Shown: piece by piece, positions 38,187 through 42,662 of the stretch | Numbering within the stretch: position 1 is the stretch's first letter | Layout of the letters: the number at the start of each line of letters is the position of its first letter | Assembly (NCBI GenBank): GCA_035703635.1 | Contig: DASSXV010000007.1 | Span: 1 to 64,000 of the forward strand | Direction of reading: 5' to 3' | DNA length: 64,000 nt | From: Trueperaceae bacterium | GTDB taxonomy: Bacteria > Deinococcota > Deinococci > Deinococcales > Trueperaceae | Translations under genes and position numbers: made by a program | The notes under the pieces: generated by a model | Seen by the model: only the letters and a program-made list of their open reading frames with translations | What the model was told of the DNA's origin: nothing | The model's database searches: none

Positions 38187-40403
38187 TTAGGCCTTGGCTG
38201 TGCGCTTGCCGCGGCTGGTGCCGCGGTTGTTCTCGATGCGCTTCTGCTGCCACTCGCGTACCCACACGATGGTCGGGGCGAGCAGGAAGATGCTCGAGAA
38301 CGTCCCGATGACGATACCGACGAGCAGCGTGACGCTGAAGCCGCGCAGCACGCTGCCGCCGAAGACGAGCAGCGCAAGTACGGGCAGGAGGGTGGTTCCC
38401 GACGTCGCAACGGTGCGCGTGAGAGTCTGGTTGACGGCCAGGTTGACGAGCTCGCGGTAGGGCTTGTCGCGGATGACGCGAACGTTCTCCCTGATGCGGT
38501 CGGCGATGATGATCGAGTCGTTCAGCGAGTAGCCGATCACGAAGAGGAGCGCGGCGAGCACTGGGATAGAGAACTCGATGCCGAGCAGCGCCTGCACCCC
38601 GAGCGTGATGGCGACGTCGTGAGCGCTTGCCAACACGACGGCGAGGGCCACCACCCAGTTCGGCCAGAAGCGGAACGCGAGGTAGACGAGCACGAGCAAG
38701 AGCGCCACGACGACCGCCAGGATCGCACCGCGGCGCAGGTCTGCGCCGACCGATGGGCCTACGAAGTCGGACGATAGCTTGGTGCCACCAACGGCAGCCG
38801 CCAAGTCGCTTGCGAACTCGTCTGTTGCCTCCTGCGCCGAGTCGCCGAGGCCGACGCGCACCGAAACTTGACGCGTCAGCGCCGTGCCACCCTCGCTCGA
38901 CTCGACGACCGTCGCGCCGTCACCGGTTACGCCTGGGATGCCCAGATCGTCGATGGCAGCGCGAACCTGGCTCGTCGTCACGCTCGTTGGCACGTCGAGG
39001 ATGGCGTTGGAGCCGCCCGTGAAGTCGGTGGAGAGGCTGAGGCCAGTGATCGACACGTAGATGATGGCGGCCACGGCGAGCGCACCAGTGGTGAAGACGA
39101 ACGGCCTGGCGCGCTCGACGAGGCGCAGGCCCCTGACTTCCCAGCCCGACCACATGTAAGTGCGCTGGTTCTTGTCGGTCAACAGCCCGAGGACGTAGGG
39201 CACCACCACGATGTTCACGAACACGGACGCCACGACGCCGACGGCGAGGGTGATGGCGAAGCCGCGCACTGGGCCAGTCGTGTACTGGTAGAGGGCCAGC
39301 GCGGCAAGCAAGGTCGTGATGTTCGCGTCGATGATGGCCGAGAGAGAGTTCGAGAAGCCGCGCTTCATGGCGGACTTGAGCCCGCGCCCCTCACGAAGCT
39401 CTTCCCTGATGCGCTCGAACGAGATCACGTTGCCGTCGACCGCGGCGCCGATCGTAAGCACGAGGCCAGCGAGGCCAGGCAGCGTGAGGGCGGCGCCGAG
39501 CGCGGCTAGCACCCCGAAGATGAACAGCATGGCGAGGATGACGCCGAACGACAGCACCCCGCCGAAGAGGGGACCGTAGTACATGAGCACGGCGAGGATG
39601 ACAAGGATGCTGCCGACGATGGCGGCGGTGGCGCCCTTGTTGATCGAGTCCCGACCGAGCGTCGGCCCGATGGAGCGGACTTCGTCGACCTTGAGGCTGA
39701 TCGGCAAGCTACCGCTGCGGAGTACGACGGCGATGTCGGTGGCCTCGTCGAGGGTGCCGACGCCCGTGATCTGGCCGGAGTCGGAGATGCGCGACTGCAG
39801 CGTTGGCGCCGTGATGATGCGGTCGTCTAGCACGATGGCCATGCGGCGGCCGACGTTGCTTGCGGTGAAGTTGCCGAACGCTTGGGCGTCGCCCGGCCTG
39901 ATCTCGAACGTCACCACTGGGCCGCTGGGCGTTCCTGGCGACTGCTGGAACTGCGCGCTGGCCGTCTGGACGATCTCGCCGGTGAAGGCAACAGGGTCGA
40001 GGTCGTCGAGGGTGAGGGCCTCGGTCGGCAGGGCGTTGAACTCCGACTTGACGATGCGGAACTCGAGCACGGCCTGCTGACCGATGAGGTCAAGCGCGCG
40101 CTCCTGGTCGGCTGAAGTCAAGCCAGGCAGCTCGACGACTACCTTGTCGTTGCCTGCCGTGGCGACGAGGGCCTCTGAGACGCCGAACTGGTTGACGCGG
40201 TTCTCTACGATGTTGCGGGCCGTCGCCAGGTCTTCAGGCGACGGGTTGGGCGTGTCGGAAACGAGCGTTACGCGCAGGCCGCCCTGCAAGTCGAGACCGA
40301 GCTTGAGGGACGGCTCTGATGGGTTCCAGGGTTTCCAAAGAAACAAGATCGACGCGACGATCAGGGCGATCAGCGCTAGACCGGTGACTAGACGGTTGGA
40401 CAT
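38187..40403 (-). CDS. secDF: Fused protein translocase subunit SecDF
   Basis: LKLGLDLQGG, IGPTLG, AVDGNVISFERIREE, DFTGG, GYSLNDSIIIADRIRE. Confidence 0.97.
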   Translation of the reverse strand: MSNRLVTGLALIALIVASILFLWKPWNPSEPSLKLGLDLQGGLRVTLVSDTPNPSPEDLATARNIVENRVNQFGVSEALVATAGNDKVVVELPGLTSADQERALDLIGQQAVLEFRIVKSEFNALPTEALTLDDLDPVAFTGEIVQTASAQFQQSPGTPSGPVVTFEIRPGDAQAFGNFTASNVGRRMAIVLDDRIITAPTLQSRISDSGQITGVGTLDEATDIAVVLRSGSLPISLKVDEVRSIGPTLGRDSINKGATAAIVGSILVILAVLMYYGPLFGGVLSFGVILAMLFIFGVLAALGAALTLPGLAGLVLTIGAAVDGNVISFERIREELREGRGLKSAMKRGFSNSLSAIIDANITTLLAALALYQYTTGPVRGFAITLAVGVVASVFVNIVVVPYVLGLLTDKNQRTYMWSGWEVRGLRLVERARPFVFTTGALAVAAIIYVSITGLSLSTDFTGGSNAILDVPTSVTTSQVRAAIDDLGIPGVTGDGATVVESSEGGTALTRQVSVRVGLGDSAQEATDEFASDLAAAVGGTKLSSDFVGPSVGADLRRGAILAVVVALLLVLVYLAFRFWPNWVVALAVVLASAHDVAITLGVQALLGIEFSIPVLAALLFVIGYSLNDSIIIADRIRENVRVIRDKPYRELVNLAVNQTLTRTVATSGTTLLPVLALLVFGGSVLRGFSVTLLVGIVIGTFSSIFLLAPTIVWVREWQQKRIENNRGTSRGKRTAKA

Positions 40404-40467
40404 CGGACTCCAAAGGGTGTTGCGAGACTAAGGACGTAGTTGGGAACGGACGAGGGCGAGGGACTCG

Positions 40468-40833
40468 TCAACCGCCCTCGAGCGTCAAGCGTCCTAGCTC
40501 GACTAGCCGCGTGCGTCTCGGCGTGGTGGCAGTGGGTGGCGCAGCGCGGCGCGGCCCGCGCAGGTGCGCGCGGCGCGTAGACACAGGTACCGGGGGTAGC
40601 AGGAGCAGTAGGCCGAGCGCTGGCGCCGGTAACCTGGCGCCGCTCTCGACCATGATGAGCACGCGGCCGCCCATGGCGCCCTCCGCGCCGGCCGGGTGAG
40701 CGGCGACGCGTGGCGGCTGGGCGTGCAAGGGGAGGAGAGTGAGCGCGAGCGCTAGCGCGAGCGGCCACCGGCGTGGTCCTCGCCCCTCGCCGGTGCGCGC
40801 GCGCAAGAAGGCCCCCTTGCCCCGCCGTGACAT
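40468..40833 (-). CDS. 121-aa secDF upstream ORF with signal peptide; candidate translocon-monitoring arrest peptide
   Basis: ATG overlaps the infB stop (TGATG); RRWPLALALALTLLPLHA|Q signal; Pro/Arg-rich tail ending ELGRLTLEGG*; fills most of the infB-secDF gap. Confidence 0.7.
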   Translation of the reverse strand: MSRRGKGAFLRARTGEGRGPRRWPLALALALTLLPLHAQPPRVAAHPAGAEGAMGGRVLIMVESGARLPAPALGLLLLLPPVPVSTRRAHLRGPRRAAPPTATTPRRTRLVELGRLTLEGG

Positions 40834-42662
40834 CAGACTGCCGGGACCTCGACCATCTCGTACGCCTCGATGATGTCGCCCTCTTGGACGTTGTCGTAGT
40901 TCTGGAGGCTGATACCGCACTCGTAACCCGTGCCGACCTCGCGGACGTCGTCCTTGAAGCGCCGCAGGCCGGAGATGCTGCCCTTGTAGACTTCCTTGCC
41001 AGCGCGCGTGATGCGCGCCTTGGCTCCACGACGCATGCTGCCGTCCGTGACGTACGAACCGGCGATGTTGCCGCTGCGCGGCACGCGGATGACCTGGCGG
41101 ACCTCTGCGTGGCCGAGGATGCGCTCCTCGAACTCTGGTTCGATCTGGCCGCGCACCATGCGCTCCACGTCCTCGACGAGTTCGTAGATGATCTTGTAGC
41201 TCTTTACGGGGATCCCGAGGCGCTCGGCGGCCTTGAGGACGCTCGCTGGGGCCGTGACACCGAACGAGAGCACGGACGCGTTGGCGGTGCTGGCGAGAAG
41301 CAGGTCGGAGTCGGTTGGAGCGCCGACTTCGGCGAGCATGATCTCGATATCTACTTCCTCTGTCGCCTCTGACTCCTTCTGCAGCACGCCCTTCAGCGCC
41401 TCGAGGGTGCCTTGGGTGTCTGCGCGCAGGAGGATGTTGATGGTCTTCTTGGTCGGCTTGCCGAAGAGGTCGGCAAGCGTGATGCCCTTGCGGCCGATCG
41501 ACTCGCGCTCGTGGTCGAGGCGCGCTTCCTTGCGTTCGGCCGTGAGGGCCTTCGCGGCGACTTCGTTGGTCACTACCTCGACTGTGTCACCGGCGTGCGG
41601 TTGCTCGGAGAAGCCAAGGAGCTGCACCGGCGTGGCAGGGAGGGCGTGTGCGATGGTGGCGCCCGTGTAATCGGTCAAGCGGCGGACCTTGGCCCACTGC
41701 TCGCCGGAGACGACGTAATCGGTGACCTTGAGGTCGCCTTCCTGCACGAGGACCGTGACGAGCACGCCCGCGCGCTTGTCGAGCACGGACTCGATGATGA
41801 CGCCCGTTGCTGGCCCCGTGTCGCGGGCGCGCAGGTCCTCGACCTCTGCGACGAGGGAGAGCATCTCTAGCAGGTCGTCGATGCCTTGGCCGGTGCGGGC
41901 ACTTAGTTCGACCATGATGGTGTCGCCGCCGTATTCCTCGGCGATCAAGCCGGACTGCATGAGGTCCTGTTTGACCTTGTCCGGGTTGGCTTGGGCGAGG
42001 TCGATCTTGTTGATCGCCACCACGATCGGCACGCCTGCCGCCTTGGCGTGGGCGATGGCCTCACGCGTCTGGGGCATGACGGAGTCGTCGGCCGCCACGA
42101 CGATGACCGCGATGTCAGTCGCGTTCGCGCCGCGCTGGCGGATGGTCGTGAAGGCCTCGTGGCCCGGAGTGTCGAGGAACGTGACGACGCCGCTCGGCGT
42201 TTGGGCCTGATAGGCGCCGATGTGCTGCGTGATGCCGCCGGCCTCGCGCTCGGCCACGCGCGACTTGCGGATGGCGTCCAGCAGGGAGGTCTTGCCGTGG
42301 TCGACGTGGCCCATGACGGTGACGACGGGCGCGCGGCGGGGGAGGGGCTCGGCGCTAGCCGCAGCGGCCGTGGGCGCTGCCTTCGTGGTCTTGCCGCTCG
42401 TCTTGGCGAGGGCGGCCTTTTCGTCTGCGCTCAGCTTGGCGGCAGCGGGCGCGGCGGCTTCGGTTGGCGCCTCGGCTGCGGCGGGGGCCGCCGTGTCGCC
42501 GCTAGCGCTCACGAGCTGGCGGACGGTCTCCGCGGTTTCTGCGTCTAGGGTGCTGGAGTGCGACTTGTACTCCACCCCGATCTCGTCCAGGACGGCGAGG
42601 AGATCCTTGTTCTCCACGCCGAGGTCCCTGGCTAGTTGATAGATCCTTACTTTCTCAGACAT
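40833..42662 (-). CDS. infB: Translation initiation factor IF-2 (short form)
   Basis: [57 protein letters not shown]. Confidence 0.98.

Follow-up and report, generated by a model that had tools for sequence, protein, structure and literature searches.

A conserved leader peptide of secDF in Deinococcota and the case for translation arrest at its stop codon

Why does an open reading frame (ORF) with an export signal stand between infB and secDF, and what might it do there? The question is raised by a 64,000-nucleotide stretch of DNA from a Trueperaceae bacterium (GenBank assembly GCA_035703635.1, contig DASSXV010000007.1, positions 1 to 64,000), which we call the window. On its minus strand rimP, nusA, ylxR and infB are followed by a 430-nt gap and then by a fused secDF, each gene being confirmed by Pfam. 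An earlier note on this DNA, made from the letters alone, had proposed that the gap holds a 121-codon ORF and that this ORF encodes a secretion-monitoring arrest peptide. Judged by its alignments, the ORF (40468..40833, minus strand, 121 codons and a TGA stop; protein P0001) is a conserved leader of secDF of the exported type, with a coding signature and with orthologues at the same position; everything beyond that we infer. The reading that we prefer is that of a translation-arrest peptide of the termination type which would monitor Sec and SecDF, and we judge its chances to be slightly better than even.

A gene that accompanies secDF

The ORF itself, the overlap of its ATG (at 40833) with the infB stop codon as TGATG (context GTCTGATGTCA) and the gap of 64 nt to the secDF ATG at 40403 are all present as the earlier note had described them. 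The strings quoted there (RRWPLALALALTLLPLHA, RGPRRAAPP and the C-terminus RLVELGRLTLEGG) are all found, and its guess of Deinococcota as the lineage was right. An open frame alone proves nothing here, because the region is rich in G+C (the gap has 76-77%, its flanks about 65%) and contains several further open frames. It is the codons of related loci that have to be consulted.

In a six-frame search of 41 related genomes, the leader frame is uninterrupted by stop codons in 8 members of the window's genus, the window genome (G000) included, and all 8 of these close congeners keep both the ATG on the infB stop (TGATG) and an end of the form ..GRLxL[E/D]GG-stop. Over 101 ungapped codon columns of these congeners, variable sites are distributed 68/55/90 over the three codon positions. 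In close pairs most differences fall on third positions (L001-L002: 15/11/34; L005-L007, a pair that stands for the same places as L010 and L011: 11/4/18), and the excess at third positions is seen on both sides of a central Met, with 829/726/1273 before it and 1543/1266/2532 after it. The G+C content of third codon positions is 0.81-0.93 versus 0.58-0.65 at second positions, resembling the neighbouring genes. Further, the conserved residues at the C-terminus are spelled in many ways among 27 loci: Gly at position -8 by GGA (8), GGG (5), GGT (2) and GGC (11), Arg at -7 by CGC (5), CGG (8) and AGG (12), Gly at -1 by GGT (7), GGC (10), GGA (3) and GGG (7), and the conserved Leu residues by TTG, CTC, CTG, CTA and TTA. 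The third-position excess together with this synonymous codon turnover therefore points to selection on the peptide and not on an RNA. By this signature the leader ORF is a real gene of the translated type, selected on its amino-acid sequence. Its [E/D]GG end is found in none of the 1538 gene-like ORFs of the window genome, 19 of which end in GG.

One could still argue for a chance open frame in G+C-rich spacer DNA, the conservation being that of an RNA element rather than of a peptide. Base composition of 76-77% G+C and the other open frames would allow this, and an 8-bp inverted repeat does lie over the LEGG-stop codons in the window. We give this explanation next to no credence, since the codon-level evidence (third-position excess, synonymous turnover at conserved residues) already contradicts it, and frame, start and stop are retained across five families. 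Conserved RNA structure was not found, and an Rfam scan of 39900-41300 gave no match at the gathering score, the best being H19_2 with 15.8 bits against a gathering score of 50, which is chance level. Some gene callers start the leader at the central, nearly invariant Met (entries of 68 aa and 66 aa). We set an internal start at that Met aside: a Shine-Dalgarno-like sequence is present upstream of it in some loci only, and the 5' part has a coding signature of its own. The leader matches no Pfam family and no NCBIfam family, and it has no name in any source.

How widely is this gene distributed, and which of its neighbours does it accompany? We refer to the window's family, Trueperaceae, as f1, to a Deinococcus-like family as f2 and to a Thermus-like family, which includes genus g57, as f4. 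A profile of 8 leader sequences matched 28 of 128 genomes of the window's family; one match (L032) is false, and all 27 true matches sit between infB and secDF. A profile of these 27 sequences, run against 1.84 billion representative proteins, gave 43 clusters at E up to 0.001, every one of which ends in [E/D]GG. A wider profile matched 57 of 127 other genomes of the window's family (a tally that includes one genome flagged as unpublished, G107, which enters no other result) and, beyond the family, 1 of 125, 0 of 23, 2 of 68 and 1 of 19 genomes. The weak matches in f4 and f5 proved to be genuine leaders that share position and ending with the others, and therefore direct inspection of the sequence upstream of secDF replaced reliance on the profile.

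An ORF ending in [E/D]GG-stop precedes secDF in 26 of 27 further matched loci. By direct inspection, an ORF with a hydrophobic N-terminus and the same ending stands before secDF in 16/16 cases in the Thermus-like genus g11, and the same build of leader recurs in g56 (1/1), g59 (1/1) and family f3 (5/5). In f2 a leader with [E/D]GG-stop is present in 27 of 30 loci, two loci have variant endings and one has no leader. We call g11 Thermus-like and f2 Deinococcus-like because of their SecDF: that of G338 (g11) is about 93% identical to PDB chain 3aqp and that of G146 (f2) roughly four-fifths identical to PDB 5xam, which we take to be the SecDF of Thermus thermophilus and Deinococcus radiodurans respectively. 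Thus the check proposed in the earlier note, a conserved LGR-x2-L-[E/D]-GG end with a variable N-terminus before secDF in relatives of Truepera, Thermus, Meiothermus and Deinococcus, came out as predicted. Fifteen extra Trueperaceae loci were sampled, 14 of them without a match to either profile and one (G092) with the false match L032 only; five of the fifteen carry divergent leaders (..RRNLEGG, ..QKYQLEGG, ..WERLQLEGG).

Of the 30 f2 loci only 17 show an infB end upstream, at a distance of 99-1341 nt from secDF. Since infB is often not upstream there while the leader stays before secDF, the conserved linkage is that with secDF. Across the order the leader tracks secDF, not infB. Most of the genomes have one secDF.

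Five elements of the peptide

The leader has a total length of 96-148 residues among full-length entries, and five elements recur in it: an n-region, a hydrophobic segment, a central motif, a linker and a C-terminal motif at the stop codon. The n-region is variable and usually basic, and the hydrophobic segment often reads ..LLPLPL, with P35 and L36 invariant in 27 sequences. In the window, n-region residues 1-22 precede the signal-peptide-like segment at residues 23-38 (WPLALALALTLLPLHA; 40720..40767, minus strand). The Kyte-Doolittle mean over 11 residues peaks there at 2.35, at residue 24, and 8 Lys or Arg residues come before the peak, which bears out the basic n-region and hydrophobic h-region that had been read from the letters. 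In the family, the top 11-residue window reaches at least 2.0 and is N-terminal in 62 of 68 sequences, with Lys or Arg before the peak in 63 of 68; the call of a signal segment is a hydropathy heuristic. The second hydrophobic patch that had been noticed in the window is indeed there (2.29), but it is not a trait of the family, only 12 of 68 members having a second peak of at least 2.0. We also considered a Tat signal: pairs of Arg occur in the n-region of some members and are absent from members of the MIRLL type, so the feature is not conserved.

The central motif has the form G-M-x-x-x-x-P-x-x-L-E-x-G-x-R and in the window occupies residues 54-71 (MGGRVLIMVESGARLPAP; 40621..40674, minus strand), with a near-invariant Met and Glu in the alignments. 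It usually lies 18-22 residues after the hydrophobic segment (range 2-25). Thermus-like leaders have the variant G-L..K-G-P..L-K-E and Deinococcus-like ones ..P-A-L-P-E-L-R. What is kept most strictly is its distance from the end. The Met is 66-72 residues from the C-terminus in all 66 scorable sequences of a set of 70, in which 27 loci and 43 clusters overlap in part. From the acidic residue of the motif to the C-terminus there are 57-66 residues in f1 (45 of 54 scored), 58-61 in f2 (26 of 27 scored) and 54 in f4 (15 of 16 scored, out of 20).

Between the central motif and the end runs a linker rich in Pro, Arg and Ala (residues 72-108; 40510..40620, minus strand; pLDDT below 50-56), which holds the non-conserved RGPRRAAPP. 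By alignment the linker cannot be matched between genera, yet its length is kept. The spacer from the signal to the C-terminus comes to about 85 residues.

The C-terminal motif (residues 109-121, RLVELGRLTLEGG; 40471..40509, minus strand) has the family consensus [LR]-L-x-[LV]-[LY]-G-R-[LR]-Q-L-[ED]-G-G, and the stop codon follows at once; in the window this is TGA at 40468..40470 (minus strand), directly after Gly-Gly, the proposed site of the stall. The [E/D]GG end is found in 82 of 82 tabulated family members. AlphaFold2, given a 27-row alignment, predicts helices at residues 23-33 (the signal) and 106-118 (the C-terminus) and no other fold, with a mean pLDDT of 59.

Two other lines of interpretation were tried and dropped. 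Look-alikes in the ESM Atlas reach 0.91-0.92 at best, with 133-141 shared features, and belong to unrelated clusters ("copper resistance protein", "suppressor protein"), which is within the range of chance. Ubiquitin-like, Pup-like and double-glycine-leader readings of the GG end do not agree with the export signal, the fixed position before secDF, the lack of a predicted beta-grasp fold and the fact that nothing follows the GG.

Arrest at termination, its route to secDF and other explanations

Four in-silico criteria for arrest peptides that monitor Sec or YidC were formulated by Fujiwara et al. 2024 (PMC10987492), and each describes the leader: it is a small ORF without annotated function upstream of secA, secDF or yidC (here 64 nt before secDF), it has an N-terminal secretion signal or transmembrane segment (here by the hydropathy heuristic only), its C-terminus is conserved (here G-R-L-Q-L-[ED]-G-G, in 82/82 tabulated members and 43/43 clusters), and more than 30 residues separate the signal from the conserved end. 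The architecture of signal, spacer and conserved C-terminus, on which the earlier note had built its case, thus fits what has been published for monitoring substrates. The '-stop' classes of the same survey are further defined by a motif that adjoins the stop codon, which is the case here apart from one read-on (L099) and three variant endings, and by an N-A-P or D-G-M-K motif, in place of which the present leader has [ED]-G-G. We therefore propose that the leader would work like the '-stop' classes and belong to neither uDF_NAP-stop nor uDF_DGMK-stop. A stall at RAAPP, which had been suggested as one possibility, does not survive the comparison: RGPRRAAPP or RSPRCAAPP occurs only in L001 and L002, which are the window and a close relative (2 of 8 congeners), and lies in the variable linker. 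Membership in the RAPP or RQH family was likewise rejected, there being no conserved R-A-P-P-like motif near the C-terminus.

Why should [E/D]-G-G before a stop codon arrest a ribosome at all? Termination-type arrest leaders before secDF have been published in which residues -1 to -5 and the stop codon are required (PMC10987492). A C-terminal Gly gives the slowest peptide release in the prokaryotic and eukaryotic data presented in PMC10802582. According to a preprint on LudP (10.64898/2026.10.26.761930), an acidic residue with a Gly right after it, close to the C-terminus, can remodel the A site and also block the release factors. Because of the NAP- and DGMK-stop leaders, LudP and slow Gly release, we read [E/D]-G-G-stop after the helix-prone L-x-x-L-G-R-L-Q-L as a putative termination arrest.

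The sequence of events would be as follows. The signal segment would bring the ribosome-nascent-chain complex to SecYEG. Next, the ribosome would stall: the A site would contain the stop codon, and Gly-Gly would be at the peptidyl-transferase centre. By then the central motif, some 54-62 residues from the C-terminus, would just have emerged on the periplasmic side, and a pull by SecDF could release the stall. The geometry draws on general knowledge of the lengths of the tunnel and the channel: a fixed distance of about 54-62 residues fits a stalled chain that reaches through both the ribosomal tunnel and SecYEG, and the motif would then lie just outside the channel, where SecDF acts. When export or SecDF activity is low, the stall would persist and expression of secDF would rise.

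How could a stalled ribosome raise the expression of secDF (38187..40403, minus strand; a fused SecD-SecF of 738 aa with PF02355, PF22599, PF21760 and PF07549), the gene presumed to be regulated? The spacer of 64 nt between leader and secDF (40404..40467, minus strand) contains 42% C and 19% G and has no conserved structure, which makes it a candidate loading site for Rho. Its C-over-G skew of 0.385 exceeds that of all 284 co-directional spacers of the window genome (99th percentile 0.28) and of 99.4% of all 64-nt windows. The C/G ratio of the spacer is 1.59 in f1 (32 loci) and 1.56 in f2 (27 loci), but f3, with 1.04, shows no such excess of C. A rho gene is present in the window genome. The spacer also holds the Shine-Dalgarno sequence of secDF, GGAG at 40408..40411, 4 nt before the ATG; GGAG precedes secDF in 27 of 27 loci. 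A precedent is the TnaC leader of tnaA in E. coli, where a ribosome stalls at the stop codon of the leader and a C-rich Rho loading site lies right after it. Both the C-rich, unstructured stretch right after the leader stop and rho are found here, and a ribosome stalled on the stop codon may shield the spacer from Rho as in TnaC. TnaC differs in that it senses tryptophan, not export, and has no signal peptide, and a dependence on Rho is here suggested by base composition. In the window's genus, shielding from Rho is probably a more likely read-out than a stem that hides the ribosome-binding site; it is the weakest step of the explanation. Taken as a whole, an order-wide arrest class, 'uDF_[E/D]GG-stop', in which an acidic-Gly-Gly termination stall is combined with a helix in the tunnel, a G-M..P..L-E handle for SecDF and a Rho read-out in lineages with a C-rich spacer, is a tentative proposal, possible rather than probable in our opinion.

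A number of points weigh against arrest or against its proposed route. Stalling, dependence on export and an effect on secDF are all inferred from sequence. The ending is not without variation: in genus g57, L098 ends in LEGC-stop, and L099 has no stop codon after LEGC, so that 26 more residues follow in frame, while GGG-stop and EGA-stop endings occur in genus g46 of f2. The leader ends in TGA in 31 of the 32 loci from Trueperaceae and in 21 of the 27 from f2, in a setting where TGA ends 63% of gene-like ORFs of the window genome, and it never does so in 18 loci of f4 and 5 of f3, which have TAG (16) or TAA (7); relatives are not independent, and no statistical conclusion is drawn from these counts. 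Because the stop codon differs by family, a mechanism specific to a single release factor is unlikely, and both release factors would therefore have to be blocked. In 10 of the 15 sampled Trueperaceae loci leader and spacer have been lost, one of the ten being congener G004; since it was lost in several Trueperaceae genera and in one congener, the leader is dispensable. As to the route, the C-rich spacer is absent in the Thermus-like f4, with a C/G of 0.97. A conserved stem hiding the ribosome-binding site of secDF, of the kind used by SecM, MifM and VemP, was not found in the alignment fold of the 8 congeners (-3.69 kcal/mol, the site being unpaired), and modelling a ribosome on the stop codon has no consistent effect on how accessible the site is predicted to be: among the loci listed at least, the change is small in most, upward in some and downward in others. 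Finally, two separate conserved blocks of peptide are under selection at the amino-acid level, and the central motif and C-terminal helix would also suit a mature peptide.

The last point leads to another explanation, namely that the product of the gene is a small protein, exported or anchored in the membrane, which works in trans, for instance as a partner of SecDF like YajC, with the central motif and the GG helix as binding surfaces. YajC is a small single-helix protein that is encoded next to secDF in many bacteria. The tight linkage of the leader gene to secDF across the order would agree with such a role, and so would a length of about 105-120 aa, similar to that of YajC. YajC (PF02699) was not found above the cut-off in the six genomes checked (G000, G003, G338, G336, G348 and G146; in G000 at E up to 0.01), and therefore a YajC-like role could be vacant. 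But PF02699 is matched by none of 48 leaders, even when E up to 1 is allowed, and the predicted structure has two helices and neither a folded C-terminal domain nor any other fold. A linker that is free in sequence and fixed in length is more in keeping with a geometric ruler on a nascent chain than with a folded subunit. Moreover, the conserved block stops exactly at the stop codon in every family, and the gene has been lost repeatedly, each time with the whole spacer. In our opinion a protein acting in trans is thus unlikely.

It may also be asked whether the leader needs to arrest anything. It could act in cis only, by coupling secDF to infB or to a leaderless promoter or by excluding Rho, with the C-terminus serving, for example, turnover of the peptide. 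The overlap of start codon and infB stop (TGATG) that all 8 close congeners share, the TAGAAT-like hexamer 7 nt before the GTG start in other genera (described below), the C-rich spacer with a rho gene, and RNA-library contigs across infB-leader and leader-secDF are all in line with this. What such a leader leaves unexplained is the selection on the export signal, on the fixed distance from motif to end and on six of the last eight residues; coupling alone would not need about 110 codons. We find this explanation quite improbable, and in what follows we keep to programmed arrest as the preferred one.

Known systems, transcription and neighbouring genes

Among the known systems, VemP of Vibrio is also a secreted leader before secDF. 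Its arrest is cancelled depending on export and SecDF, it stalls a few codons before its own stop codon, and it forms helices in the tunnel, to which the helix predicted at the C-terminus here may be compared. It differs in that its target is a second secDF paralogue, which it regulates by means of a stem masking the ribosome-binding site, whereas here there is mostly a single secDF and the stem was not found. ApdA/ApdP and the RQH family (PMC7897499, PMC10987492) share the position before secDF and the overall build, but their R-A-P-P-like C-terminal motif is absent from this family. The closest in design are uDF_NAP-stop, uDF_DGMK-stop and uA_NSP-stop as presented in PMC10987492, each a small ORF of no known function with a signal, a long spacer and a motif at the stop codon. 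Here, in contrast, the motif is [E/D]-G-G with no Pro or Lys at -1, the lineage is Deinococcota and not Bacteroidota or Bacillota, and there is an extra central motif at a fixed distance; arrest of the present leader is a proposal. LudP (bioRxiv 10.64898/2026.10.26.761930) likewise lies upstream of secDF, has an essential acidic-Gly (D-G-E-K) and can arrest at a stop codon, according to the preprint. It has D-G-x-K where the present leader has [E/D]-G-G, and arrests mainly in elongation; no kinship in sequence was seen, a sequence comparison not having been run.

Is any of this new? Neither PMC10987492 nor PMC7897499 nor the LudP preprint mentions Deinococcus, Thermus or Truepera in its main text, 'LEGG' is absent from the main texts of the first two, and Deinococcus and Thermus are absent from PMC12992588. 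We found no publication on this leader, on an arrest peptide in Deinococcota, on a monitoring substrate in Thermus or on a GG-stop arrest; the supplementary tables of the survey of more than 30,000 genomes may list such ORFs. Many phyla are known to have arrest peptides in front of sec and yidC genes, and we found none described for Deinococcota or with [E/D]-G-G-stop. Hence the idea of a secDF-monitoring leader is a known one, and what would be added is a new motif, a new phylum, a second conserved element and possibly a different read-out.

If the leader does stall ribosomes, it would add a termination-arrest sequence free of Pro. It would also provide a natural arrest substrate for the ribosome of Thermus, a structural workhorse and the best-characterised bacterial ribosome, since close relatives of Thermus thermophilus carry the leader. 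It would also bear on the two organisms for which crystal structures of SecDF exist; the PDB chain closest to the SecDF of G338 is 3aqp, and that closest to the SecDF of G146 is 5xam. The central motif at its fixed distance gives a concrete idea of where SecDF may grip a translocating chain, and the C-rich spacer raises the possibility of an export sensor with Rho as its read-out. Even if no stall occurs, we would still be dealing with an unannotated small protein, of exported type by its sequence, that is tied to SecDF throughout the order.

The genes upstream of the leader, all on the minus strand and all identified by Pfam, are rimP (44800-44303), nusA (44185-42980), ylxR (42971-42663) and infB (40833..42662; IF-2, with PF11987, PF00009 and PF04760), whose TGA stop overlaps the leader ATG. 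To the remark that the leader sits where rbfA usually follows infB we can add that PF02033 is unmatched anywhere in the window genome, which is 97.65% complete (E up to 0.01). In the leader-less loci (L107-L112, L115, L117, L118 and L120, in genera g22, g6, g17, g31 and g40, one g33 genome and congener G004) the infB end and the secDF start meet or lie no more than about 360 nt apart.

Overlap of the infB stop with the leader start couples the two genes in the window's genus. A promoter-like site was not found in a scan of 40200-41100, and the terminator scan of the same region was uninformative, giving one terminator-like site, inside secDF, where shuffled sequence gives 0.5. Contigs from RNA libraries of three studies bridge both infB and the leader (40583-40925 and 40763-41165) and the leader and secDF (40309-40650 and 40111-40608); they attest contiguity only, and carry-over of DNA is possible. 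These data weakly suggest that the leader is co-transcribed with infB. The arrangement is different in genera g36, g23 and g21 (L023-L030), in which the leader begins with GTG and a TAGAAT-like hexamer (TAGAAT, TAAGAT or TATCAT) precedes this codon by exactly 7 nt. This suggests a leaderless mRNA of leader and secDF with a promoter of its own.

Two observations concern the RNA around the leader stop. The 8-bp inverted repeat of the window (CGAGGGCG / CGCCCTCG; 40471-40500 and 40440-40467, minus strand) extends over the LEGG-stop codons and the start of the spacer and, in the alignment fold, is not conserved in congeners. In Thermus-like loci (L082-L088, L092 and L096) the spacer contains a conserved hairpin with the loop GGGAAGG and compensatory changes in 4 of 12 pairs. 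It is followed by an invariant anti-Shine-Dalgarno-like sequence, CTTCCCCGGC, which contains CTTCCCC and is complementary to the loop and to Shine-Dalgarno-like sequences; hairpin and CTTCCCCGGC together could form an RNA switch or a pseudoknot.

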